Source: an uncultured Gammaproteobacteria bacterium (GTDB lineage: Bacteria; Pseudomonadota; Gammaproteobacteria; JAGOUU01). From it: DNA of 64,000 bases. Location of the stretch: the NCBI GenBank assembly GCA_964609155.1, contig CAZSRF010000002.1, positions 352 through 64,351 of the forward strand, read 5' to 3'. Shown one piece after another: positions 9,859 through 63,988 of the stretch (position 1 is its first letter; each line of letters begins with the position of its first letter). Below the pieces are notes generated by a model that saw only the letters and a program-made list of their open reading frames with translations, searched no databases and was not told the origin of the DNA. The position numbers and the translations under genes were made by a program.

Positions 9859-10003
9859 AATATTCAAAAATAATTATTGCTTTCTAGAGTAACAAGAACT
9901 TAGGTAGCAGCAAGCCTCTTATACCTATTAACGAGCAGATATCTTGCACAGAAGCTCTGGGTTAGTTAACAGCTAGTTGAAACTTAATTATACTTGTGTA
10001 TAA

Positions 10004-10636
10004 TTGGTTATTATGAATAAGTTGTACACAATAAGCCAAGCAGCAACCCATTATGGTGTCTCATCCTCTACTTTAAGAAGATGGGAGCGTGAAGGCAAGC
10101 TAATACCAGATAGGACAAAGGGAAAACAACGAAGATATAAACTAGTAGACGAATGTGAATCTAAACTCCAAGTAGCACCAGATAAAAAAGTTACTGTAGC
10201 CTACGCTAGAGTTAGTAGTCACGATCAAAAAGCAGATTTAGAGCGTCAAAAGCAATTACTAGAAATGTATTGTGCTTCGCAAGGTTGGCAATTTAAAGTT
10301 ATTTCCGATCTTGGTAGTGGCATGAACTACAATAAACGTGGCCTAAAAGAGTTGTTGTCGGTAATTTTAAACGGCGACATAAGTCGTTTAGTATTAACAC
10401 ATAAAGATAGATTATTAAGATTTGGTGCTGAGTTAATATTTTCACTATGTGAACGTCGAGGTGTAGAAGTAGTTATTATTAATAAAGGCGATGAACCTAG
10501 TTTCGAAGAAGATTTAGCAAAAGACGTATTGGAAATAATCACAGTGTTTTCAGCTAGATTATATGGTTCAAGAAGTAAGAAAAATAAAAAGCTATTAGAA
10601 AATCTCAAGGAAGCGGCAAGTGTTGTTGGTTCATAA
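10004..10636 (+). CDS. tnpA: IS607-family transposase TnpA (MerR-like HTH fused to serine-recombinase/resolvase catalytic domain)
   Basis: N-terminal HTH (YTISQAATHYGVSSSTLRRWEREGKL). Resolvase catalytic region VAYARVSSHDQKADLERQ with the catalytic Ser. Confidence 0.85.
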   Translation: MVIMNKLYTISQAATHYGVSSSTLRRWEREGKLIPDRTKGKQRRYKLVDECESKLQVAPDKKVTVAYARVSSHDQKADLERQKQLLEMYCASQGWQFKVISDLGSGMNYNKRGLKELLSVILNGDISRLVLTHKDRLLRFGAELIFSLCERRGVEVVIINKGDEPSFEEDLAKDVLEIITVFSARLYGSRSKKNKKLLENLKEAASVVGS

Positions 10637-11801
10637 AATTGAGCTTAAAGTCAATAATAAACAAGCAAATTATTTTGCTAAAGCTTGTGGTGTAGCGAGA
10701 TTTGCCTATAACTGGGCGTTAGATGAATGGCAAAAGCAGTACAAAGCTGGTCAAAAACCTAATGAGATTAATCTGCGGAAATATCTAAATTCTATAAAAA
10801 ACGAACAATTTCCATGGATGTTAGAAGTCACCAAAGTAGCCCCGCAGCAGGCAATCAAGAATTTAGGCACAGCATTTCAAAGATTTTTTAATCATCAGGG
10901 CAAGTACCCAAAATTTAAGAAAAAGGGAATTCACGATTCTTTTCGAGCTGACAATGGCCCAGCTAAGGTTGGGGCGGATGCTGTACAGATTCTTGATAAA
11001 AAGATTAATTTACCAAGAATTGGTTGGGTAAGATTAAAAGAAAGATTGCGATTTACTGGTCAAATAAAATCAGTGGTAATTTCAAGACGCGCAAACCGCT
11101 GGTATGCGGCAATAAGTGTAGATATCACAGAGCTAAACCAAGTGCACAAAAACCAAGGCATTGTTGGTGTAGATTTAGGTATTAAGACACTGGCCACATT
11201 ATCAACAGGTGAGCCAATAGTGGGGCCACGGGCGCACAAACAGTTGTTAACAAGAGTGAGAAAATATTCTAAAAAGTTATCCAGATGTAGAAAAGGCAGC
11301 AAGAATTATAAAAAAGCGAGACTCAAACTTAGTAAAACTCATGCCAAGATACGAGATATTAGAATAGATAATCTACATAAATTAACTACTGATTTAGCAC
11401 TGAAGTTCAATACAATAGGCATAGAAGATTTAAATATAAGCGGCATGGTTAGAAATAAGAAACTAGCTAGGCATATTATGGATGGGTCATTCTATGAATT
11501 TCGACGTCAGCTTGAGTATAAAGCTAAATGGTATGGTTCAACAGTAGTGGTTGTCGGTAGATTTTATCCATCGAGTAAGCTGTGCCATTGTTGTAATACT
11601 ATAAATCAAGAGCTGACACTTAGCGATAGGCAGTGGCAATGCAATAATTGTAATAAGCTACATGATAGAGATATCAATGCAGCTATAAATATCGCCAACT
11701 ATGCAAGGCATGCCAATATGATTGTTAGTACACAGAGCTCCTGTGGAATTTACGCTTGCGGAGAGAAAAGCGCTGGCGCAGCAGTTAACACTGCTGCGTG
11801 A
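10620..11801 (+). CDS. tnpB: TnpB (OrfB) RuvC-like RNA-guided endonuclease with C-terminal zinc finger
   Basis: N-terminus MLLVHKIELKVNNKQANYF is typical of TnpB. It has a RuvC-like split domain and a CxxC...CxxC zinc finger (CHCCN...CNNCNKLHDRDINAAINIA). It overlaps tnpA by 17 nt. Confidence 0.85.
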   Translation: MLLVHKIELKVNNKQANYFAKACGVARFAYNWALDEWQKQYKAGQKPNEINLRKYLNSIKNEQFPWMLEVTKVAPQQAIKNLGTAFQRFFNHQGKYPKFKKKGIHDSFRADNGPAKVGADAVQILDKKINLPRIGWVRLKERLRFTGQIKSVVISRRANRWYAAISVDITELNQVHKNQGIVGVDLGIKTLATLSTGEPIVGPRAHKQLLTRVRKYSKKLSRCRKGSKNYKKARLKLSKTHAKIRDIRIDNLHKLTTDLALKFNTIGIEDLNISGMVRNKKLARHIMDGSFYEFRRQLEYKAKWYGSTVVVVGRFYPSSKLCHCCNTINQELTLSDRQWQCNNCNKLHDRDINAAINIANYARHANMIVSTQSSCGIYACGEKSAGAAVNTAA

Positions 11802-12075
11802 AACTATGTCTCGTTGAAACAAGAATTTAACACTAAATTTGATCACTCTGAACAAGTATGATAAGGTTTAGATAAGTTTGAAAGAGCGGTTATGAGTCCT
11901 TTCTTCGCATTTGAGCGATAAGTACTGACTGAATATTTGCCTGTTGATAATCTAACATCTTGTTTTGTTATCAATCTATATGTTATGTTGATTAATAAAT
12001 ATATTTTTAGTATTTACTATTTTAATCGATTACTGTAAACTACAAAATATAACATGCAGCTATTCAACTAGGTAT

Positions 12076-15883: not shown

Positions 15884-18256
15884 ATGACAGCAGCATTTGT
15901 CAAATGGTTTAGTCAGCTTGGGATGAAAGATTTACCATCTGTGGGTGGTAAAAACGCTTCTTTAGGAGAAATGATTGGTAGCTTAACTAATCTTGGAGTA
16001 AAAGTTCCTAACGGTTTTGCGACTACAGCAGAAGCCTATCGAGAATTTTTAGTTCAAAATAATTTAGCTAATAGAATAAATAGTAAACTATCTGATTTAG
16101 ATATCAATAATGTCTCGAAATTAGCGCAAGTAGGTGCTGAAATCAGGCAAGATATATTAGATACACCATTAATGCCTAGACTTGAGGCTGAAATTAGAGA
16201 GTACTATCAAACTCTTGTTGGTAATCTTCAATCTTCGGTAGCAATACGATCTTCTGCAACTGCAGAAGATCTACCTGATGCATCTTTTGCTGGTCAACAA
16301 GAAACATATTTGAATATCTTAGGCATAGATAATGTTTTATTAGCCATTAAGCAAGTTTTTGCTAGTTTATTTAACGACCGTGCAATAGCTTATCGAGTAC
16401 ATAAAGGGTTTTCTCATTCTGAGGTTGCATTATCTGCCGGTATTCAGCAGATGGTTAGAAGTGATCTTGGTGCAAGTGGAGTAATGTTTACTTTAGATAC
16501 GGAAACAGGCTTTGAAGACGTTGTATTTATTACATCATCCTATGGACTGGGAGAAGCTGTTGTACAGGGTATAGTTAATCCTGATGAGTTTTATGTTTAC
16601 AAAGATTCTGTACGACATAATAAAGAGGCAGTTATTAATCGTCGTTTGGGAAGTAAATCAGTTGCTATGATTTATACAAGTGATCACCGAGCAGGATACT
16701 CAGTAGAAACTATAGAGGTTGCCTCAGATAAGAAAAATAAGTTTTCTATTTCAGATAATGACTTATTAATTTTAGCTAAACATGCAATGACTATTGAACA
16801 GCATTATGGCTGTCATATGGACATTGAATGGGCTAAAGATGGGTTGAGTGGTGAGATATTTATTCTTCAAGCAAGACCTGAGACGGTTAATAGCCAGATA
16901 AAGAATAAAATTATTACTAAATTTGAATTTACTGATAAATTATATAATACACTGCCTTTGGTTAGTGGTCGTGCTATTGGGCAAAAAATTGGTATTGGTA
17001 AAGTTAAAATTCTCAATACACATAAAGAAATGCAAGATTTTTCTCAGGGTGATGTATTGGTAGCCGATATGACAGATCCTGATTGGGAACCAATCATGGC
17101 AAAAGCTAGTGCTATAGTTACTAATCGAGGTGGTAGAACATGTCATGCTGCGATTATTGCCCGAGAGTTAGGTATCCCTGCCGTTGTGGGTTGCGGTGAT
17201 GCTACAGATAAATTACAAAGTGGCAATTTAATTACTGTGTCTTGTTGTGAAGGAGAAACTGGCTATATTTATAGCGGCCATAGAGACTTTAATGTTGATG
17301 CTATAAATGTTGATAATATGCCAGAAATTCCGTGTAAAATTATGATGAATATTGGTAATCCAGAAAAAGCATTTACTTTTCAAAATTTACCGAATGCAGG
17401 TGTTGGCTTAGCAAGATTAGAATTTATTATCAGTCATATGATAGGAGTGCATCCAAGAGCGTTGTTAGATTTTGATGTCTTAGATAGAGAATTAAAGCAA
17501 GAAGTTTCCGATAAGATTAGTGGCTATAAATCTCCGGTGGATTTTTATATTAATAAATTAGCGGAAGGAATCGCCATGCTTGCAGTGGCCTTTAAAAATA
17601 AACCAGTTATAGTGCGATTGTCTGATTTTAAATCTAACGAATATGCTAATTTATGCGGAGGAGTTAACTACGAACCACGCGAAGAAAACCCTATGATTGG
17701 CTATAGAGGTGCTGCTAGGTATATTGATAAAAATTTTAAATATTGCTTTGAACTGGAATGTTTGGCAATTAAAAAAGTTCGTCAAGATATGGGGTTAAAA
17801 AATATTCAGATCATGATCCCATTTGTTAGAACATTAGAGCAAGCAAAAAAAGTTATTGCTACTTTAGAGGATTTTGGATTATCTCGAAATAAGGATGACT
17901 TAAAAATAATTATGATGTGTGAAGTACCATCTAATGTTATTCTTGCGGAAGAGTTCTTAGAATATTTTGATGGTTTTTCTATCGGTTCTAATGATCTCAC
18001 TCAGTTAACTTTAGGTATAGATCGAGATTCCGGAATTGTTGCGGATAGTTTTGATGAACGTGATCCTGCAGTAATGAAATTATTAGAGCAGGTAATAAAA
18101 ATATGTAAACAAAAAAGTAAATACATAGGAATATGCGGCCAAGGACCTTCAGATCATCCAGATTTTGCAAGTTGGCTTCTTGCTCAGGGGATTGATTCTT
18201 TATCTCTTAATCCTGATACTGTATTACAAACATGGTTATATTTAGCTAAGTCTTGA
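15884..18256 (+). CDS. ppsA: phosphoenolpyruvate synthase
   Basis: 790 aa. PEP-utilising enzyme motifs, including the phosphohistidine region GGRTCHAAIIARELGIPAVVG. Confidence 0.92.
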   Translation: MTAAFVKWFSQLGMKDLPSVGGKNASLGEMIGSLTNLGVKVPNGFATTAEAYREFLVQNNLANRINSKLSDLDINNVSKLAQVGAEIRQDILDTPLMPRLEAEIREYYQTLVGNLQSSVAIRSSATAEDLPDASFAGQQETYLNILGIDNVLLAIKQVFASLFNDRAIAYRVHKGFSHSEVALSAGIQQMVRSDLGASGVMFTLDTETGFEDVVFITSSYGLGEAVVQGIVNPDEFYVYKDSVRHNKEAVINRRLGSKSVAMIYTSDHRAGYSVETIEVASDKKNKFSISDNDLLILAKHAMTIEQHYGCHMDIEWAKDGLSGEIFILQARPETVNSQIKNKIITKFEFTDKLYNTLPLVSGRAIGQKIGIGKVKILNTHKEMQDFSQGDVLVADMTDPDWEPIMAKASAIVTNRGGRTCHAAIIARELGIPAVVGCGDATDKLQSGNLITVSCCEGETGYIYSGHRDFNVDAINVDNMPEIPCKIMMNIGNPEKAFTFQNLPNAGVGLARLEFIISHMIGVHPRALLDFDVLDRELKQEVSDKISGYKSPVDFYINKLAEGIAMLAVAFKNKPVIVRLSDFKSNEYANLCGGVNYEPREENPMIGYRGAARYIDKNFKYCFELECLAIKKVRQDMGLKNIQIMIPFVRTLEQAKKVIATLEDFGLSRNKDDLKIIMMCEVPSNVILAEEFLEYFDGFSIGSNDLTQLTLGIDRDSGIVADSFDERDPAVMKLLEQVIKICKQKSKYIGICGQGPSDHPDFASWLLAQGIDSLSLNPDTVLQTWLYLAKS

Positions 18257-18278
18257 TCAGGAGTTAAGCAGAGATTCT

Positions 18279-18603
18279 GTCATACCGCAGGGCTGTCCAG
18301 CGAATAGTTGTAAACTTAAATATAATTACCGGGGATAGCGTCATCCTACAATTTTTCTGTTCGAAATATTGAAAAGAAGTAATAACTTTCACAGAAAAAT
18401 TTTAGGATCCAGAGGCGATCTTGCTTATTGGTGCCAATAAGGTAGATTTTTCCTGGATCCTTGAATTTTTTTGCGAATTTTTAGTGTTCTTTTCAAGCTC
18501 TCGAGCAAAAAAATCCAAGGATGACGTCGTTGAGGGTATGTTATTTAATCTTCCAACTATTCATCGGACAGCCCTGTGTCATACCGGCCGAGGAGCCGGT
18601 GTC
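18279..18603. repeat. About 325-bp MITE-like element with roughly 28-bp terminal inverted repeats
   Basis: Left end GTCATACCGCAGGGCTGTCCAGCGAATA. Right end TATTCATCGGACAGCCCTGTGTCATACC, which is its reverse complement with a few mismatches. It contains an internal inverted repeat GGATCC...TTATTGGTGCCAATAA...GGATCC at 18405-18460 and the hairpin module CCGGCCGAGGAGCCGG at 18585-18600. Confidence 0.6.
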
Positions 18604-18617
18604 TTGTGGTATAAATC

Positions 18618-19934
18618 TTAACCATCCCAAACTTGGTTAGTAGCAATAAACAATGCAGCTCCAATCGTCCAGTCTATATCGTGCTTAGGAATTAAAAAGT
18701 TATGGTAATCATCTGGCATGTTATAACCATTATTTAATAGTATTTTTAAATAAGTAGCGTCAAAACAAGCCTCATTAAGTTCTGCTTTGCTAATATTGGG
18801 GAATTTACTTTTAAATGCTTCATGGTTTGCATGGCAACTATCAGGAATATTTTTAATTAGATCGACAGGAAGCTTAGAATTAAAAAAATTAAAATTATAA
18901 TAATATCCAGAAGCAGCAACAAATTTCATATTGCTTTTTAATGCGGACTTGATAGCTTTAGCAATTGTTAGGTGTTCTTTTTTATTTTGCAAATAAATTT
19001 TAATAAGATCGCCGCATCTAAAATAATTAAAATTATTTGTTTTATTTATCTCATGGGGTGTGTTGACACCTGTTTCTGGGATGCTGCATTCTTTGTTGGC
19101 TTGTTTAGAATCATAAGTAGCAATATTCTTTTTAGTTTGTACTAACCCATAACCTAAAATACTATTGCTATAAATAGTGTATTCTGAGCTATCAAATTTT
19201 AGTTTAAATAAATTTTTTTTAAGATCCGAGTTTTTTTTATTCTTCTTTTCATTATATTCCATAGCAACTTGAGTAGAGGCTCCACCCATATCTAGAGCAG
19301 CTATGGTAGGTTTATTAAGTTGAATGGTTTGAAGTTTATAATTAATACTTAGCCAATCAAAAATTCCTTCCAATTCTCCTGGTATAGTCTTTGCTATTAT
19401 CATGTCAGGGTTATGGCCTGAATTAATAATAACCTGTTTGATTTTTTTATAAAGTTCGTATTGTTGTTTGGCGTGATGTAATCGCATGCCGGCAGTGGCG
19501 TAAAAATATATTGGTATCTCTTTTATTTCAATATGTAGGTTTTTTAATTGACCATCTAACTTTTTATATAGAGGTAAAATATGCTCGGAAATATTTTGAT
19601 TTTGATGGTCGTGACAGTAATCAGCGATTGCATGTTTATCATTGCTTTTAGCTATGGCAATTTCAGTAAGCTTTGGAATGGCGTTAGGAGACTCTTTATT
19701 TTTATCTCTTTGCACATGATAGGCATGCATCCTTGAGCCAGTGCTTCCTAGATCAACGATAATAATATTTTTATGTGGATTTTTCTTGATAGATAAATCA
19801 TCAGGAGATACACAGTAATTAGGTTGACTTTCTTTTGGTTTGGAAAGATAGTCTTTTAAATTAAACCCGGCGAGCAGTGTTTCCGCACCAAGAGAAGAAA
19901 GCAATAAAAACAGACAGATACAAATCTTTCGCAT
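18618..19934 (-). CDS. secreted ecto-NTPDase / apyrase (GDA1/CD39 family)
   Basis: Signal peptide, then apyrase conserved region 1 (IIIVDLGSTGSRMHAYH) and later ACR-like blocks (ALDMGGASTQVA). A eukaryote-type enzyme known in Legionella. Confidence 0.8.
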   Translation of the reverse strand: MRKICICLFLLLSSLGAETLLAGFNLKDYLSKPKESQPNYCVSPDDLSIKKNPHKNIIIVDLGSTGSRMHAYHVQRDKNKESPNAIPKLTEIAIAKSNDKHAIADYCHDHQNQNISEHILPLYKKLDGQLKNLHIEIKEIPIYFYATAGMRLHHAKQQYELYKKIKQVIINSGHNPDMIIAKTIPGELEGIFDWLSINYKLQTIQLNKPTIAALDMGGASTQVAMEYNEKKNKKNSDLKKNLFKLKFDSSEYTIYSNSILGYGLVQTKKNIATYDSKQANKECSIPETGVNTPHEINKTNNFNYFRCGDLIKIYLQNKKEHLTIAKAIKSALKSNMKFVAASGYYYNFNFFNSKLPVDLIKNIPDSCHANHEAFKSKFPNISKAELNEACFDATYLKILLNNGYNMPDDYHNFLIPKHDIDWTIGAALFIATNQVWDG

Positions 19935-32130: not shown

Positions 32131-32552
32131 AATTGCTCCATGTTAATTAAAGGTTTTTTGACCTGTTAAATTCTACCGGAATAATCAGAATATACAAATA
32201 GGACTTTTGTTTAGGGGCTACACGCGCGGGAAAGCTGTTGATAATTCCCCAAGAAAATTAGGCATCTTCAGGAGAATTGCAGGTGAGCGGAGTTAGATCT
32301 TAGTCAACTCTTACATAGTATAGAGGTAGTAAATTGCACTAGCGACAGCAATAAGCAAAAGAGCTGTTATAGTTACTCCATCAGAGAAATCATTGGGTCT
32401 ATTACCGTGTTCATCAAAGTGTTCTTGATTGTTCATAGATTAAGCTTAAAACAGTTTAAAATTAACTGCTATTGTATCAAATAATTTATATTTAGCATTT
32501 ATTTTAAAAAAATATTTATCCAGTTGATTTAAAGCCTATCAGAACTATTAGA

Positions 32553-32663
32553 ACTTACGCAAAAGCTTGTCGTACCGGCCAAAGAGCCAGATCTTGCAGA
32601 AAAGATCTCAGTTCTGCGCACTCGCTTGACCGAGACGACAACTTACAGTTATTCTGCGTAAAT
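32553..32663. repeat. About 110-bp MITE/REP-like element, copy C (TIRs ACTTACGCA...TGCGTAA)
   Basis: In reverse-complement orientation it aligns with the copies at 41056-41170 and 62144-62245: shared core GTCRTCTCGGTCAAGCG...GCAAGAT...GGCCGGTAYGACA. Confidence 0.6.
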
Positions 32664-32838
32664 CTTGCCTATAGAGGCCTATCACAAACTTTAAAGAATC
32701 ACCGGGAGATCAATGGCAGATTAGTGGGAGATTATTGTAAAAAATGGTTCTACTATGCTAATATAATCAGTATGTTAATTTGATAATTCTGATTTAATAT
32801 TTCAAGATATAGGCTTAATTCATAAGCTTAAGAGATAT

Positions 32839-39144: not shown

Positions 39145-41055
39145 ATGAGTAATAAAAATAAAATAATACTAGGAGTTAGTTTAACTTTTTTAGTAGTAAA
39201 CTTTGCTAATGCCGCTGATAAAATTTCACTTAACACTAACAGCTTGATTACTAAAAATAATAATACTACTTTAATTAAACAATTGGGTAATTCTTATAAA
39301 TTCAAACAAATTAAAAAAGTTGAGCTACCCAATGGTAAATTTAGATATAAATTTACACAATACTATAATGATATTCCAATATGGGATAGTGGAGTTGTAA
39401 GTAATAAAGAAAATATTAGTGATGTAAATAGCAATGATGTTTTACATGGCAGCTTATTGATTAATCTGGAAAAAGATATCTCTTTAGGTAAAGCTGGTTT
39501 AACTGAAAGCCAAGCGCAAGAAATTGCGATTAAAGCAGCTGGCGTTAAAGATAGTTCTACTGTAAAACATATGAACAATGTACAGTATATCAAAAATTAT
39601 GCTGATATGGCAAAAACAGTGTATGTTATAGATTTTATTATAGAAGCAGATAATACTATTAAAAGTCGTCCATTTTTTATTATTGACGCCAATACAGGTG
39701 AGGTCTTGGAAAAATGGGAAGGTTTAAATACAGCTAATTATGGTAAGGGTACAGGGCCTGGGGGCAATGTCAAATCAGGTAAATATTATTACGGCAAAGA
39801 CTATGGTAATCTTGTAGTAGATGTTAATGGTACATCTTGTACAATGAGTAGCCCTAATGTTGATACTTATGACATGAAGCAAAAGACTACAGGAACAGGG
39901 ACTTTACATCAATTTACTTGTTATGAGAATGCTTATAAAGAAATAAATGGTGGATATAGTCCGATAAATGATGCTCACTATTTTGGAAATGTTGTGTATG
40001 ACATGTATAAAGAATGGTATAAAACGGCACCATTAACTTTTAAATTAAAAATGCGTGTTCATTATGGTAATAATTATGATAATGCCATGTGGGATGGTCA
40101 GCAAATGAGCTTTGGTGATGGTGGTGCTACTTTCTACCCATTAGTTTCACAGGATGTTGTGGGGCATGAGGTAAGCCATGGTTTTACTCAGCAAAACTCA
40201 AATCTTGTTTATGAGAAACAACCTGGTGGTATAAATGAAGCTTTTTCTGATATGGCTGGCGAAGCTTCTGAATACTACTTTAATAAAAATAAAACAGAGG
40301 AAGCTAAGGTAGATTGGTTAGTTGGTGAATCCATTATGAAGGGTGCTAAAGGTAAAGCGTTAAGATACTTTTCGGAACCAACCAAAGATGGCAGTTCTAT
40401 CAGCAATGCAAAAGATTATAGTGATAGCTTAGATGTACACCAAACGAGTGGTGTTTATAATAAAGCATTCTATACTCTATCTAATATGACAAACTGGGAT
40501 CTTAAGAAAGCGTTTGATGCTTTTGTCTTAGCTAATCAAGTATATTGGACACAAAATACTGGTTATGATCAAGGTGCATGTGGTGTTAAAAATGCTGCAG
40601 CTGATTTAGGTTATGCAGCAGCTGATGTTATTAGTGCATTTAAAGTTGTTGGTGTAAATGCAAGTTGTAGCAATGATCCAACAGATCCGACAGATCCGAC
40701 AGATCCAACCGATCCTACTCCAGCGCCTGAGGCTATTGAGTTACAAAAAGCAGTTCCTGTGTATAGCCTTTCTGGAAATGCTGGAAGTAAAAAACTTTAC
40801 TATATGGACGTAGCTGGATCTAGAATTGGTGTCTTAAGTTTGTGGAATTTTGGTGGTGTAGGGGCCCCTTCTATGCAGGTGGCTTTAAATCGTATGCCAA
40901 CCAATGCTGACTATGATTGTACCTCTAGTTCTGATTTGGAATTAGGTAATTATAGATCGTGCTTAATATTCACACCAAAAGCGGGTAGATATTTTATAAC
41001 TGTCAATGGTGACAATGCTTATCAAGATGTTACTTTATGGGGCAGTTATCAATAG
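39145..41055 (+). CDS. secreted M4 (thermolysin/vibriolysin-like) zinc metalloprotease with C-terminal PT-repeat linker and PPC-like domain
   Basis: Signal peptide. HEXXH motif VVGHEVSHGF and a downstream GINEAFSD glutamate. DPTDPTDPTDPTDPT linker followed by about 110 aa of C-terminal domain. Confidence 0.85.
   Translation: MSNKNKIILGVSLTFLVVNFANAADKISLNTNSLITKNNNTTLIKQLGNSYKFKQIKKVELPNGKFRYKFTQYYNDIPIWDSGVVSNKENISDVNSNDVLHGSLLINLEKDISLGKAGLTESQAQEIAIKAAGVKDSSTVKHMNNVQYIKNYADMAKTVYVIDFIIEADNTIKSRPFFIIDANTGEVLEKWEGLNTANYGKGTGPGGNVKSGKYYYGKDYGNLVVDVNGTSCTMSSPNVDTYDMKQKTTGTGTLHQFTCYENAYKEINGGYSPINDAHYFGNVVYDMYKEWYKTAPLTFKLKMRVHYGNNYDNAMWDGQQMSFGDGGATFYPLVSQDVVGHEVSHGFTQQNSNLVYEKQPGGINEAFSDMAGEASEYYFNKNKTEEAKVDWLVGESIMKGAKGKALRYFSEPTKDGSSISNAKDYSDSLDVHQTSGVYNKAFYTLSNMTNWDLKKAFDAFVLANQVYWTQNTGYDQGACGVKNAAADLGYAAADVISAFKVVGVNASCSNDPTDPTDPTDPTDPTPAPEAIELQKAVPVYSLSGNAGSKKLYYMDVAGSRIGVLSLWNFGGVGAPSMQVALNRMPTNADYDCTSSSDLELGNYRSCLIFTPKAGRYFITVNGDNAYQDVTLWGSYQ
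40675..40719 (+). repeat. 5 x 9-bp tandem repeat (GATCCRACA) encoding (DPT)5 linker
   Basis: Direct imperfect tandem copies seen in the sequence, inside the protease ORF. Confidence 0.8.
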
Positions 41056-41170
41056 ACTTACGCAGAATGATTCTAGCTTGTCATCTCGGTCAAGCACGAA
41101 GTGCATAGAACCATGATCTTTTTTGCAAGATACCGGCTCCTCGGCCGGTATGACAGGTTTTTATGTAGCT
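41056..41170. repeat. About 110-bp MITE/REP-like element, copy A, with GC-rich hairpin TACCGGCTCCTCGGCCGGTA
   Basis: Lies exactly between the protease stop (41053-41055) and the convergent sensor-kinase stop (41161-41163). It aligns with copies B and C. Confidence 0.6.
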
Positions 41171-44109
41171 GCTGTCATTTCTTCATTTTCACCATAGCAA
41201 ACAATAACAGCTTCTATATTCATATATAATTGTTGAAGATCTTCTATATAATCTTCAAAATCTTTTGATGATTTAATTTTTGATTCAAGATTAAAACAAG
41301 AATTTTTAAGATACGGTACGCCACAATAACAGCATGAACCGTGTAGTTTGTGGACATGATGGTAAAGGTTTTCATGATCTTTTGCTATATAGGCATTTTT
41401 AATTTCAGCCATAGTATTTGGTAAATCACATACTAGCATTTCTAGTAGCTCTTTAGCTAGATCAATATTGTAATTAGCGTGTTTTAATGAAAGTTCCCAG
41501 TTAATAGCATTAATAATTGGATTGAGTTTCGAATTAAAGTTAGCACTATCTTTATTTAACCATCTTTTCAAAATAATTATTAGTTCATTTTCATTTATAG
41601 GTTTAGATAAATAATCTTGTAGCCCTTGTCTAATAAGTTTTTCATGTTCACCTAAGATTGCATGAGCAGTAACAGCAATAATGGGAATGGCTTTTATATT
41701 ACGTGATCGGTAGTAGTTGTTAATCCTTCTGGCTGTTTCTATGCCATCAATATTGGGCATTTGTATATCCATTAAGATTAGATCAAATTTATTTTTTTTC
41801 ACAATCTCTATAGCATTGAGCCCGCTGCTTGCTGTTGTAACATTTATATTGAGTGATTTTAGTAGAGTTTCTATTAGTTTAAGATTTGCAAAGTTATCAT
41901 CTACTGCCAATACATTAGTTTTTTTAAACAACGCTTGGTGATCAATTTTATTCTCTTGGTGTTGCTGTATACCAAGATTTGGTGATGTTAATTTATCAAC
42001 AATGGATAATTTATCTGCATTTAAGGGTGGGTTTGAGGTTTTAATTAATTCATAATTAGTATTATTTTCTGTTTTTTTAATAGAATGATTTTCAAAACAT
42101 TGAATAATATTTTCATGTAATTTTTTATGTAATACTGGTTTTCCTATACAAAAGACTGTGCCGAAACTTTTTATATCTTCATGGATAAACTGATCGCTGG
42201 TGTTGACTAAAACAGCCAGCATGGGTGTCGAGTCAAGTTTTCTGGAATCTAATTCTGTAAGCAGGGATCTTACTTCATCACTGTAGTTGTGTAGGTTATT
42301 CATCCCATAAATAATTAAATCAATTTTTTCAATATGGTTAGGGATTGTCCTGATGTTTGGGATATCAATGGTATCAACTCCCCAATTTTTAAATAAATAC
42401 TTTATACTCAATCTTGTAATAGGATGCTGTTCGCAGATAACAATAGTCTTGTTGCAAATATCATCGGGTAATAGTAGTTTATTGCTTTCAAGATTTTCAC
42501 CAATTTTAGCTTTAAATGTAAACCAAAAAACAGATCCTTCACCACTGGCGGTGTCAAAACCTATTTTACCATCCATTTTATGTACTAATTTTTTCGAAAT
42601 AGCCAAGCCCAGGCCTGTCCCTCCAAATTTTCTAGCAGTTGTTGTGTCAGCTTGCGAGAAGGCTTTAAATAATTTATTTTTTTCATGATCATTTAAGCCG
42701 ATACCTGTGTCGGTTACGGTCACTTTTATTTTAACATTTTTATTTTGTTTAAATATCTGATTAGATAAATTTGGTCTATCTGGATCCAGCATAATTCTAA
42801 TAACCACCGAGCCTGTATCAGTAAATTTGATAGCATTATTAGCAAGATTGGTTATTATTTGTTTTAAACGTAAAGAATCCGTGATAATCATTCTAGGAAC
42901 ATCAGAATAGATGATAGGTACTAACTCAAGATTTTTATGGTGGGCAAATGGAGCTAAAATTGATATCGATTCCTCTAGGCAGTTTAGTAAATCAAACTGA
43001 CGTATGTCCAACTCTAATTTTCCAGCTTCTATTTTAGAAAAATCCAGAATATCGTTAATTATTTGTAATAAACTATGGGCAGATTGATTTATGATAGCAA
43101 CATAATCTAATTGCTGACTGGTTAAATGGGATTTTGTTAATAACTGAGTAAACCCTAGTATTCCATTCATGGGAGTCCTGATTTCATGACTCATATTAGC
43201 TAGAAATTCTGATTTAACTCTACTTGCAGCTAGAGCTTCTTTACGTGCTATATCTAATTCAGCGTTTTGAATCTCTATAGTCTCTAGTGTTTGTCTTAAC
43301 TCTCTCGTTGCTTCATCGACATTGTTTTGCATTTCATTGTGGGCAACCTTTAATGAATTTGCCATGCTATTTATTCCTGATTCAAGAATTTTTAATTCAC
43401 TGCTTGCTCCAGTGTAGACTCTTGTGGAAAACTCGCCATCTTTGATCTTTTCAACAGCTGTAGTTAATTTTAAAATAGGGTATGTTACATCACGCCCAAG
43501 CCTTTTGGCGAATAAACCGGATACTAAAAGCCCAAATAATAAGATACAACCACTTGTAAATAGTGTTTGATACTGCTTTATGATAGTTTTAGTTTTACTA
43601 AGCTCTATATTTACCCATCCTATAACTTTTTGATTAATGGATGATTGAGTTACATCTCTATTGGGTGAATTAAGGTTATCAGAAAAATCTTCTATGATAA
43701 CATCTCGTAACATTATAGGAGCAACAAAAATAAAAGACTTCTTGTTTTCATTGTTAATAATAGTCAATGGTGATTTATCACGATTAGCATTGTATTTAAT
43801 ATCTATTTTTGAGCCTATATGACTAAGTTCTCTGCCTGTTTTATCGTAAATGCTTATAGCAGAAACTTCCGGATCTTCAGCTGCATTTTCTAAAATCTTG
43901 CGTAATATTTTTTTGTTATTGGCGAATACGGCATATTCACTACTGGAGGTTAATTGAATAGTTAAAGCAGTACCATGATCTTTTAAAGCTTGTTCTAGAT
44001 CAGTTAATCTTGTACTAGTAAAGTACACTCCGAGTAAGGCGGCTATAATCATTGTGGGTAATAAAGCAACAATGAGCACTCTATTTTTTATGCCCCATTC
44101 TTCTAACAT
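41161..44109 (-). CDS. tripartite hybrid sensor histidine kinase, BarA/GacS/LetS-like (TM-periplasmic-TM-HAMP-HisKA-HATPase-REC-HPt)
   Basis: HisKA H-box MSHEIRTPMNGILG. HATPase G-boxes (DTGIGL, GGTGLGLAISKKLV). Receiver VLAVDDN...LILMDIQMP. C-terminal HPt HKLHGSCCYCG. About 160 extra aa between the HATPase and REC domains. Confidence 0.8.
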   Translation of the reverse strand: MLEEWGIKNRVLIVALLPTMIIAALLGVYFTSTRLTDLEQALKDHGTALTIQLTSSSEYAVFANNKKILRKILENAAEDPEVSAISIYDKTGRELSHIGSKIDIKYNANRDKSPLTIINNENKKSFIFVAPIMLRDVIIEDFSDNLNSPNRDVTQSSINQKVIGWVNIELSKTKTIIKQYQTLFTSGCILLFGLLVSGLFAKRLGRDVTYPILKLTTAVEKIKDGEFSTRVYTGASSELKILESGINSMANSLKVAHNEMQNNVDEATRELRQTLETIEIQNAELDIARKEALAASRVKSEFLANMSHEIRTPMNGILGFTQLLTKSHLTSQQLDYVAIINQSAHSLLQIINDILDFSKIEAGKLELDIRQFDLLNCLEESISILAPFAHHKNLELVPIIYSDVPRMIITDSLRLKQIITNLANNAIKFTDTGSVVIRIMLDPDRPNLSNQIFKQNKNVKIKVTVTDTGIGLNDHEKNKLFKAFSQADTTTARKFGGTGLGLAISKKLVHKMDGKIGFDTASGEGSVFWFTFKAKIGENLESNKLLLPDDICNKTIVICEQHPITRLSIKYLFKNWGVDTIDIPNIRTIPNHIEKIDLIIYGMNNLHNYSDEVRSLLTELDSRKLDSTPMLAVLVNTSDQFIHEDIKSFGTVFCIGKPVLHKKLHENIIQCFENHSIKKTENNTNYELIKTSNPPLNADKLSIVDKLTSPNLGIQQHQENKIDHQALFKKTNVLAVDDNFANLKLIETLLKSLNINVTTASSGLNAIEIVKKNKFDLILMDIQMPNIDGIETARRINNYYRSRNIKAIPIIAVTAHAILGEHEKLIRQGLQDYLSKPINENELIIILKRWLNKDSANFNSKLNPIINAINWELSLKHANYNIDLAKELLEMLVCDLPNTMAEIKNAYIAKDHENLYHHVHKLHGSCCYCGVPYLKNSCFNLESKIKSSKDFEDYIEDLQQLYMNIEAVIVCYGENEEMTAAT

Positions 44110-61907: not shown

Positions 61908-62143
61908 TTTATCCTCTTTTAGTTTAATGCATATAATTAATGCACTTAGTATAATTTTAGTTAATAATTTAGGCTTGACTTATAATTTTGTATTTATTTT
62001 TGCTGACCAAGCCTAAATTACATTTCTAATACCTTGTAATTTACTTGGATTATAAAGAAGCAAACTTAACACTAACTGAATCTAATTTTTTTAATCTAGA
62101 TATTCAATTTAACTATTTAGCAGTGAAATTAAAGAAATTCAGG

Positions 62144-62245
62144 ACTTATGAACAATGATTGTAAACTGCCATCTCGGTCAAGCGCAGTGCGCTGAACCAA
62201 GATTCTCAGCTGCAAGATACGGCTGTATAACAAGCTTTTGCTAGC
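62144..62245. repeat. About 100-bp MITE/REP-like element, copy B (hairpin module deleted)
   Basis: ACTTATGAACAATGATTGTAAACTGCCATCTCGGTCAAGCGCAGTGCGCTGAACCAAGATTCTCAGCTGCAAGATACGGCTG...ACAAGCTTTTGCTA aligns with copies A and C. The pnuC stop codon lies at its right end. Confidence 0.55.
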
Positions 62246-62876
62246 CTGTAGTGTGGGATATCAGGATGTCAGATGATTCCATAGATAATTGGGATAATTG
62301 TCGTGATTGGTTGTTTTTGTACCAAATTTTATACCAGGTAGTGAAGCCATATATTGCCACAAAAAGATAACAAATATTTAATACAAAATGCCCTGTTAAG
62401 GTTTTATGGTAAAACATGCTGATCATGAGTAAATCAGTGATAAACCAAATAATCCAGTTTTCTATATACCGTCTAGCTGTTAACCATTGGCCAATTAGGC
62501 TTAATGCCATTGTCATAGCATCAAGGTGAGGGATAGTAGAATTAGTATATTGGGTTAAAATAAAATAAGTTGTAATATACCCAAACGTTAAACATACTAA
62601 CAATTTGACAATGGTATTTGTATCTAAAAAGATAATATCAGCAGGTTTAGAATGAGCACCACCATAGGTCCAATGGAATAATCCATATAGAGCCAGAGAG
62701 ATATAAATAATTTCAAGAAATGCTTCACCGTAGATACCAGTAGTATAATAAAGATAAAGACTAATTAAATTTGATATGATGCACAACGGCCAACCCCAAA
62801 TATTATTTCGAGCATAGAGTACCGTAATACTAAAAGAAAGTAGGGCGCCAAAGTAATCTGCAAAAAAAATACTCAT
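62241..62876 (-). CDS. pnuC: nicotinamide riboside transporter PnuC
   Basis: About 210 aa and 7 TM. Conserved QWLTARRYIENWIIWFITD segment resembles the PnuC signature. It is adjacent to pncB. Start preferred at MSIFF; the ORF track starts at 62909. Confidence 0.6.
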   Translation of the reverse strand: MSIFFADYFGALLSFSITVLYARNNIWGWPLCIISNLISLYLYYTTGIYGEAFLEIIYISLALYGLFHWTYGGAHSKPADIIFLDTNTIVKLLVCLTFGYITTYFILTQYTNSTIPHLDAMTMALSLIGQWLTARRYIENWIIWFITDLLMISMFYHKTLTGHFVLNICYLFVAIYGFTTWYKIWYKNNQSRQLSQLSMESSDILISHTTG

Positions 62877-62881
62877 AGATA

Positions 62882-63988
62882 TTAGGTGATAACTCCTCCA
62901 CCTAGGCAAACATTGCTATCATTATAGTCATAAAACACCATTGTTTGTCCAGGAGTAATAGCTCTTTGCGGTTTATCAAATTTAACAATGAGCTGCTTAG
63001 AGTCACTAATATTAATATAAGCTAATTGATCTGGTTGGCGATATCTTGATTTTATGTAAACAGGGGTACTTTCAGTCAAGTCATTTACAATTGAAATGAA
63101 ATTGTAATTAGTTACAGTGGCTTCTGAGCGATATAACAAAGGATGATTAGAGCCTTGTACTACTAAAAGTGTATTGTTGTCTAGATTTTTTTGAGCTACA
63201 TACCATGGAAGCTCAGAATAGTTTTTAAGGCCACCCAAATTAAGTCCTTGGCGCTGTCCTAGTGTATAATACATAAGGCCATCATGGCGGCCGATAATAT
63301 TATTGTTAACATCTATAATATTTCCAGGGTTAGCTGGTAAGTATTTACTTAGAAAATTTTTAAATTTTACCTCACCTATAAAACAGATACCTGTACTATC
63401 TTTTTTATCATGAGTAACAAGATCAAGCTCTTTTGCTATAGCACGTATCTCAGGCTTGGTTAATTCTCCAATAGGAAATAGACTTCTTGATAATTGTGTT
63501 TGATTTAAAGCACAAAGAAAATAACTTTGATCTTTATTAGTATCAATGGCTTTTAGAAGCTGGTATGTATTATTATTTTTACAAATTCTTGCATAATGTC
63601 CAGTGGCTATATAGTCTGCATTGAGATTATTACAAGCATAATCTAAAAAAGCTTTGAATTTTACTTCTTTATTACATAAAATATCAGGGTTAGGGGTTCT
63701 TCCTAATTTATATTCTTGAATAAAATACTCAAAAACATGATTCCAATATTCAGCAGAAAAATTACAATTATGTAATTTTACATTTAATTTTTCGCAAACT
63801 GCCTCTGCGTCTTTTAGATCTGCAGCTGCGCTACAATACGTATCTGTATCATCTTCCTCCCAGTTTTTCATAAACAAAGCTTCTACTTGATAACCTTGTT
63901 TTTTTAAAAGATAGACGGCTACAGACGAATCAACCCCTCCAGACAGGCCGACAATAACTTTTATAGGGCGTTTAGACGTTATGTGCAT
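62882..63988 (-). CDS. mnmA: tRNA-specific 2-thiouridylase MnmA
   Basis: PP-loop GLSGGVDSSV. Catalytic Cys residues. 368 aa. Confidence 0.92.
   Translation of the reverse strand: MHITSKRPIKVIVGLSGGVDSSVAVYLLKKQGYQVEALFMKNWEEDDTDTYCSAAADLKDAEAVCEKLNVKLHNCNFSAEYWNHVFEYFIQEYKLGRTPNPDILCNKEVKFKAFLDYACNNLNADYIATGHYARICKNNNTYQLLKAIDTNKDQSYFLCALNQTQLSRSLFPIGELTKPEIRAIAKELDLVTHDKKDSTGICFIGEVKFKNFLSKYLPANPGNIIDVNNNIIGRHDGLMYYTLGQRQGLNLGGLKNYSELPWYVAQKNLDNNTLLVVQGSNHPLLYRSEATVTNYNFISIVNDLTESTPVYIKSRYRQPDQLAYINISDSKQLIVKFDKPQRAITPGQTMVFYDYNDSNVCLGGGVIT

Follow-up and report, generated by a model that had tools for sequence, protein, structure and literature searches.

A family of imperfectly palindromic, non-coding repeats at gene 3' ends in an AT-rich gammaproteobacterial genome

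A repeat that coincides with the stop codons of the genes beside it may have been drawn to those sites, may have reshaped the proteins encoded there, or may serve as a transcription terminator. This question is raised by a 64-kb stretch of DNA from an uncultured gammaproteobacterium (the window), in which one copy of a dispersed repeat, copy A, occupies the whole 105-nt gap between a convergent protease gene and sensor kinase gene, while another, copy B, lies flush with the 3' end of pnuC. All three roles had been proposed in a preliminary description of the sequence, whose coordinates for the protease, kinase and pnuC agree with the open reading frame (ORF) calls. The window is AT-rich (~32% GC) and compact, with 49 ORFs and 91% of its length coding. 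The kinase is of the BarA/GacS type (domain order sCache_4-HAMP-HisKA-HATPase-REC-Hpt) and finds its nearest relatives among proteins of Berkiella/Legionellales-like metagenome-assembled genomes (MAGs). Additionally, ankyrin, Sel1 and TPR proteins are encoded, a content that in our judgement fits an intracellular lifestyle.

Anatomy and distribution of the repeat family

A 14-mer core, CATCTCGGTCAAGC, occurs three times in the window with two or fewer mismatches, where 0.08 occurrences are expected. An nhmmer profile built from the copies recovered three full copies (E = 1e-33 to 1e-39), together with partial copies at 18577-18619 and 9911-9963. The copies are dispersed and non-coding, measure ~96-120 nt and display a mean column identity of 75%; three full and two partial copies are present in the 64 kb, and further copies or remnants of the family were found at orthologous loci in relatives. 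The features described here are collected in Table 1.

Table 1. Positions of repeat copies, their parts and the adjoining gene ends in the window
Feature	Position	Strand	Remark
Decayed copy, 35 nt downstream of prpD stop	9893-9966	-	Truncated by IS607-family insertion
ppsA stop	18254-18256		
Segment like the right terminal repeat, with first part of solo GC hairpin module	18260-18287	-	3 nt after ppsA stop
Remainder of solo GC hairpin module	18577-18606	-	Ends 11 nt from NTPDase stop
GDA1/CD39 NTPDase gene stop	18618-18620		
Copy C, 116 nt	32550-32665	-	Free-standing, between divergent genes
M4 thermolysin-type protease ORF	39145-41055	+	TAG at 41053-41055
Copy A, 120 nt	41054-41173	+	Fills convergent protease/kinase gap
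Copy A, left terminal repeat AGACTTACGCAGAA	41054-41067		
Copy A, decayed central palindrome	~41082-41118		
Copy A, GC hairpin, arms ATACCGGCU/GGCCGGUAU (ATACCGGC...GCCGGTAT), 9 bp	41130-41151		
Copy A, right terminal repeat GTTTTTATGTAGCTGCT	41157-41173		
Last three kinase codons (A-A-T) and TAA	41161-41173	-	Inside copy A right terminal repeat
BarA/GacS-type hybrid sensor kinase ORF	41161-44109	-	TAA at 41161-41163
Copy B	62142-62239	+	Flush with pnuC 3' end
Copy B, central hairpin, near-perfect palindrome	62171-62203		-19.7 kcal/mol, z = -4.3 (pnuC-sense strand)
pnuC stop and flanks, GGCTAGC in pnuC sense	62240-62246	-	Host DNA resembling the terminal repeat
pnuC (PnuC)	62241-62909	-	TAG at 62241-62243

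The family is bounded by terminal inverted repeats of the form 5'-AGAAYTTACGCARAA...TTTTGCGTAAGTTCT-3', which are best preserved in copy C (AGAACTTACGCAAAA / AGATTTACGCAGAA, ~12/14 by eye) and degenerate in copy A. Inside these outer repeats lies an inner inverted repeat (GCTTGTCRT/AYGACAAGC), whose stem is preserved by one compensatory A-U to G-C change, and innermost are the central palindrome and a second, GC-rich hairpin. The whole can be described as two similar half-units in inverted orientation (terminal inverted repeat, then YTGTCRT, then GC-rich arm), the halves being unequal in that the GC hairpin is missing from the left one. Copy B is without the right outer terminal repeat and has lost about half of the GC hairpin. 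Over its full length the element folds weakly better than shuffled sequences (z = -0.7 to -2.7). No Rfam 15 family was matched in the window at gathering score, and a single 13-bit chance match (ssnA) was returned at E values up to 1. Furthermore, no reading frame is conserved through the element across copies A, B and C; a conserved peptide like that of the Rickettsia palindromic elements was considered and rejected, since each of the three copies has an open frame, yet these frames are not homologous.

Copy C was correctly described as free-standing: its position is within a 708-nt intergenic region between divergent genes, away from any gene end. Within 32541-32558, its terminal repeat AGAACTTAC is immediately preceded by AGAACTATT; these 9 nt are missing in the relative and look like a short tandem duplication of the repeat start.

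The family was found only in one species-level clade, none of the 67-72% identical relatives examined containing it; for the 67% relative this negative result covers 17.6 kb. Among the matches listed from a core-pattern scan of genome contigs there were chance matches in GC-rich genomes and an unrelated miniature inverted-repeat transposable element (MITE) of ~150 nt, and scans of metagenome and viral sequences with a stricter pattern yielded only chance matches in GC-rich DNA. The ~150-nt MITE (ACCCAATTGTTGCATAGATTCCCGGAATTCTCGGTCAAGC...GGGCGAGAAACCGGGCGCGTCAC) is abundant in two MAGs, one labelled Pseudomonadota and one Wenzhouxiangellaceae (DAITQM01 and JBDIVS01), where it was seen at loci L004, L009, L011, L020 and others. 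It was rejected as a family member, the 17 bases that it has in common with the search pattern (TCTCGGTCAAGC..AGTGC) being apparently coincidental.

Gene ends with and without the repeat

The preliminary description had copy A adjoin the protease stop and its far end supply the stop of the kinase, and both statements were borne out. The refined start of the element, 41054, overlaps the protease TAG, of which the AG constitutes the first two bases of the left terminal repeat. At the opposite end, the kinase gene runs into the right terminal repeat (...GAA ATG AC/A GCA GCT ACA TAA, the slash marking the edge of the repeat), which contributes the last three codons and the stop. This TAA is CAA in better-preserved copies, in which the kinase frame stays open through the whole element; translated without the TAA, the kinase would gain an extension of ~38 residues.

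The same gap holds a 126-nt element in a 90% identical relative (L001/L002). Both halves are right-hand units, the one on the protease side well preserved and flipped in orientation, the one on the kinase side decayed and collinear. As in the window, the protease stop is composed of a T followed by the AG of a terminal repeat, and the kinase gene has its last three codons and its stop in repeat sequence (VLA* vs AAT* in the window). As the element and the C-to-T change that creates the kinase stop are common to both genomes, the gap was occupied before the two lineages split and underwent turnover later. Every close relative found carries the element in the kinase gap. In a 72% identical relative (L003) there is no element and the gap measures 65 nt, the protease stopping at the same codon as in the window and in the element-bearing L002 (tails ...SSYL* vs ...GSYQ* in the element-free comparison). 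At the copy C locus, where the window has a full copy, the 90% relative retains a 35-nt remnant consisting of the terminal repeat and one hairpin arm.

At pnuC, the occupied site could be compared with repeat-free ones, the contigs of relatives being reached through mates in the PnuC cluster. The window was aligned with four contigs (L124-L127) from a relative of 89% identity and with a single contig (L128) from one of 96% identity; all five assemblies are without 85-96 nt of copy B. PnuC ends in ...SHTTS* (TAA or TAG) in these relatives and in ...SHTTG* (TAG) in the window, at the same codon, the serine/glycine difference being a point change outside the insert. The sequence at 62240-62246, GCTAGCC on the forward strand, is similar to the terminal inverted repeat, and it is host DNA because the repeat-free relatives have AGCTAGC or AGCTAAC there. 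The stop and the surrounding GCTAGC are therefore not of repeat origin, and copy B neither supplied the stop nor altered PnuC. Thus, the earlier statement that copy B ends at the pnuC stop holds in so far as the two abut, the T-run of copy B ending at 62239, 1 nt from the TAG, but the TAG itself belongs to the host and not to the copy.

The limits of the insertion can be placed to within ~11 nt at this site, which is the single informative empty-site comparison. When gaps are penalised heavily, TTCAATAGACC of the relatives is placed opposite TTCATAAGTCC, the left terminal repeat of copy B, so that the difference comprises either a gain of 96 nt including that terminal repeat or an 85-nt core gained or lost beside an older TTCAATAGACC remnant. 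Against L124, L126 and L128, no target-site duplication (TSD), whether of TA or of any other direct repeat, was found. The tree ((window, L128), L124), with identities of 95.9%, 89.3% and 89.1%, favours a gain of copy B in the window lineage, although the palindromic core may instead have been lost repeatedly in the relatives. The PnuC tail beyond the conserved AIYG motif (C-terminal region 62241-62350) is ~8-10 residues longer in this clade than in orthologues of 54-64% identity. The last pnuC codons, ACAAGCTAG, match the reverse complement of the copy A inner repeat at 9/9 bases; pnuC may already have ended in a much older remnant of an element, or the match may be due to chance.

It had been suggested that the insertions remodelled the C-termini of the host genes, a suggestion against which unchanged stop positions in repeat-free orthologues would speak. 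Such positions were found for PnuC in the five assemblies and for the protease in L003. The kinase does contain three repeat-derived codons, yet its tail, counted from the CCYCG motif, is 57 aa long, which equals the median of 101 orthologues (range 47-69), and beyond the Hpt domain the kinases share no conserved tail sequence. The alternative suggestion, that the elements target a TTTTTA/TTTGCTA motif, was not upheld either: the T-run, which is absent from the relatives' empty pnuC site, is part of the element and therefore not a target.

In contrast, the proposed location at gene 3' ends was confirmed, as copies abut or overlap stop codons and convergent gaps are especially preferred. Given ~4.9 kb of non-element intergenic DNA in the window, the probability that a random insertion point lies no more than 3 nt downstream of a stop is ~0.04. 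Three of the five loci lie within that distance (P ~6e-4, or ~5e-3 counting both element ends), an estimate that assumes a uniform null, was made post hoc on a small number of loci and ignores selection against insertions into promoters.

Solo units and other mobile DNA

The right-hand unit, consisting of terminal repeat and GC hairpin, also occurs alone between ppsA and an NTPDase gene (18260-18606), the segment at 18577-18606 being 97% identical (~29/30 bases) to the reverse complement of 41126-41155. This solo module is split by a second, unrelated and near-perfectly palindromic MITE of 289 nt (18288-18576), with terminal inverted repeats beginning CAGGGCTGTCC and internal arms of 93 nt, which inserted into the hairpin stem of that module. 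On either side of it stands a perfect 10-bp direct repeat, TGTCATACCG (18278-18287 and 18577-18586), which is a classical TSD. No further copy of the 289-nt MITE was found in the window or in the relatives' loci, and it is absent from the orthologous gap of the relative. That gap is 106 nt long (L131 8949-9054) and contains an unrelated and very stable hairpin, CCTCCCCTATCCTCC...GGGAGGATAGGGGAGG, with a stem of ~18 bp; the gap as a whole folds at -42 kcal/mol (z = -5.2). The CCTCCCCTATCCTCC motif does not occur in the window and possibly represents another palindromic repeat family of the relative. Approximately 20 nt directly 3' of the ppsA stop are common to both genomes.

The region 3' of prpD holds decayed copies of the family in both the window and the relative. 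In the window, an IS607-family insertion (~9967-11957, ORFs 10004-10636 and 10620-11801) has entered one of these copies. It encodes a TnpA with a MerR-type helix-turn-helix and a serine-resolvase domain and a TnpB (OrfB_IS605 / Cas12f1-like TNB); the 90% relative (L131) has no such insertion. The IS607 copy was examined as a possible parent of the repeats and rejected, as the profile matched nothing within it other than the decayed copy at its left edge. It is the only insertion sequence in the window, and no transposase with ends matching those of the repeat was found there.

Two observations concern the neighbourhood of the kinase gene in the 90% relative. A protein of 3373 residues with DUF3638 and weak OTU-deubiquitinase matches is encoded at L001 1-8559, beside ABC-substrate-binding and kinase genes, and we take it to resemble an effector. 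L001 8868-8882 may be another decayed copy of the repeat.

Possible function, mobility and comparable systems

The GC hairpin of copy A had been likened to a bidirectional terminator, and as a GC hairpin in a convergent gap it does resemble such terminators and the SPRITE elements of Streptococcus pneumoniae. Its position is moreover homologous to that of a true bidirectional terminator in L003 (8922-8957), a textbook case with A-tract, GGGCG stem and T-tract (AAAAAAGGGCG...CGCCCTTTTTT) that folds at -18.6 and -19.3 kcal/mol (z about -5). However, the copy A hairpin is without a flanking A-tract or a U-tract within 0-2 nt on either strand and fails the consensus scan, which returned no terminator-like site in 40500-41700 (the copy A gap) or in the L002 gap, while the same scan scores L003 as a positive control. 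None of the terminator sites listed across the window lies on a full copy. Ancestrally, the gap now filled by copy A is likely to have contained the terminator seen in L003. As this terminator is gone from the gap, a role for copy A in 3' RNA structure is suggested, and such a role is possible for the hairpins of the copies in general, although sequence features lend it no support.

A more far-reaching version of this idea is that the elements were exapted, replacing ancestral terminators and now stopping transcription or shielding the upstream mRNA in the manner of REP sequences, so that selection for this function would hold them against stop codons. The L003 terminator lies in exactly the gap of copy A, and canonical terminator-like sites are near chance in the window (38 found vs ~29 expected). 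The GC hairpin of copy A and the central hairpin of copy B are stable (-14 kcal/mol, z = -2.9, on the kinase-sense strand, and -19.7 kcal/mol, z = -4.3), and the end bearing the GC hairpin faces the stop at the kinase, ppsA, prpD and both L002 genes, just as copy B faces pnuC with the same end, its hairpin truncated. Yet no U-tract stands beside any of the hairpins, the folding of the full-length element exceeds that of shuffles weakly, and half of the GC hairpin is lost in copy B. Copy C stands between divergent genes, a setting that calls for no terminator, and close relatives without copy B have no substitute hairpin after pnuC. On balance, we regard exaptation as somewhat unlikely.

Two further explanations concern the manner in which the elements move. 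In one, a core of ~85 nt enters a short motif similar to GC(G)TA[AG]G / CTTA(C)GC, often one bearing a stop codon, without duplication, as with serine, IS110-type or HUH enzymes directed at REP-like palindromes, and the 'outer terminal repeats' would be target or hybrid sequence. That copy B has no TSD agrees with this, as does the register in which host GCTAGC stands with the GCGTAAG of the repeat; the empty sites show TTCAATAGACC or TTCAGAC opposite the TTCATAAGTCC of copy B (8/11, L128), and the segment like the terminal repeat 3' of the ppsA stop is kept though the adjoining hairpin differs. The window also encodes the transposase of the IS607 element, a serine recombinase of a type that produces no TSD. 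This explanation nevertheless seems improbable, since the matches to the motif, short at 6-9 nt, were made post hoc, copies A, B and C are conserved straight across the proposed boundary of core and target, the window has no outer palindrome standing alone, and the IS607 copy has no family match inside it beyond its left edge; it draws on one informative site. The second explanation, which we consider quite improbable, is that inverted pairs of REP-like hairpins (REPINs) are spread by a RAYT, a Y1 HUH transposase, encoded elsewhere. The two inverted and similar half-units, the relative's copy with its likeness to an inverted pair of 'right halves', the lone half-unit at 18260-18606 and the lack of a TSD would all be expected of such elements, and, as in BIMEs, the sites are conserved and their content varies. 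On the other hand, the halves differ and the GC hairpin is missing from the left one, the density is low (~5 loci in 64 kb), and none of the 40 of 49 ORFs scanned against Pfam matched Y1_Tnp or RAYT, the other nine being identified as housekeeping genes from the Pfam annotation of syntenic genes on relatives' contigs. That the family reflects chance resemblance or an assembly artefact is scarcely credible: the source is a metagenome-assembled genome, in which repeats can be mis-joined, but the profile E values are 1e-33 to 1e-39, independent assemblies, made from several sequencing runs, have the family at orthologous loci, and all flanking ORFs are intact.

The best explanation is probably that these are MITE/REP-like elements, non-coding, GC-enriched and imperfectly palindromic, that persist harmlessly at gene 3' ends. 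Like MITEs, they are small (below ~500 bp), have terminal inverted repeats and are polymorphic (copy B is absent from five assemblies, copy C is reduced to a remnant and half of copy A is flipped in a relative), and like REPs they are extragenic, GC-rich imperfect palindromes in inverted pairs. Genomes of 89-96% identity differ in which copies they have and in how these are rearranged. No TSD was found at copy B, which also misses the right outer repeat, and classical DDE-type MITE transposition is therefore only a candidate. The elements would be selfish or near-neutral, mobilised in trans by an enzyme encoded elsewhere. They would survive almost exclusively at harmless positions, immediately downstream of ORFs and most of all between convergent genes, the same sites being occupied repeatedly as turnover hot spots. 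Contact with a stop codon would then arise in either of two ways: an element may lie 0-3 nt from an older stop and leave the protein unchanged, as at pnuC, the protease and ppsA, or the final codons of an ORF may fall within the terminal repeat, which then provides the stop, as in the kinase with its three element-encoded residues and a TAA derived from CAA. Possibly, the hairpins have a modest role as 3'-end RNA structures.

The family is previously undescribed and, compared by description, behaves like QMITE1 and QMITE2 of Coxiella burnetii (Wachter et al. 2018), which overlap gene 3' ends by 1-50 bp, touch functional genes at their 3' ends only and do not significantly change protein size (PMC5896051). 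One gene is extended at its C-terminus there, with the stop at or beside the element, short and full-length forms coexist, and the copies are insertion hot spots for IS1111 (PMC5896051). Both groups are small, palindromic, non-coding repeats of intracellular Legionellales and hot spots of insertion, in the present case for a 289-nt MITE and an IS607 element; unlike the QMITEs, the present family shows no TSD or direct repeats and was found only in one species-level clade. A review covers the nesting of MITEs in clusters, their inversion and their effects at 3' ends, as well as strain-to-strain presence or absence and inversion of Correia and ERIC elements (PMC10969869). The likeness to the REP/BIME and REPIN-RAYT systems of gammaproteobacteria lies in GC-rich imperfect palindromes in inverted pairs at gene 3' ends or convergent gaps, without target duplication, at conserved sites with variable content that are themselves targets of insertion sequences; the absence of a RAYT among the scanned ORFs, the unequal halves and the low copy number set the present family apart. 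REP/BIME sequences have been proposed as stabilisers of mRNA 3' ends. Correia elements (CREE/NEMIS) and enterobacterial ERIC/IRU sequences are 100-150 nt long, with terminal inverted repeats and long hairpins, and lie beside genes; ERIC at gene 3' ends affects transcript stability. The Correia elements of Neisseria duplicate TA on insertion, whereas no TA duplication is evident at copy B, and we know of no sequence likeness between the family and the Correia or ERIC consensus. Rickettsia palindromic elements, palindromic repeats of obligate intracellular bacteria that lie in-frame inside genes and add ~30-50 residues, are likewise able to become part of ORFs, but here three terminal codons of one gene are element-derived and the frames shift between copies.

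A bolder and improbable proposition is that the hairpin cores of ~85 nt are site-specific, duplication-free 3'-end cassettes, inserted beside a stop-containing motif that mimics their own terminal repeat. Were this true, cores would repeatedly replace each other and ancestral intrinsic terminators, and exchangeable mobile hairpins would largely define transcript 3' ends in this intracellular lineage. The favoured explanation, of harmless MITE/REP-like elements at gene 3' ends, reveals no new mechanism. The comparison of occupied sites with empty or rearranged ones does show that elements of this kind may coincide with stop codons and yet leave the proteins unaltered, and calls for caution in the annotation of MAGs where gene 3' ends and apparent 'C-terminal variants' lie beside repeats. 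Furthermore, the family adds another case in which convergent gaps are hot spots of turnover and a canonical terminator has been lost.
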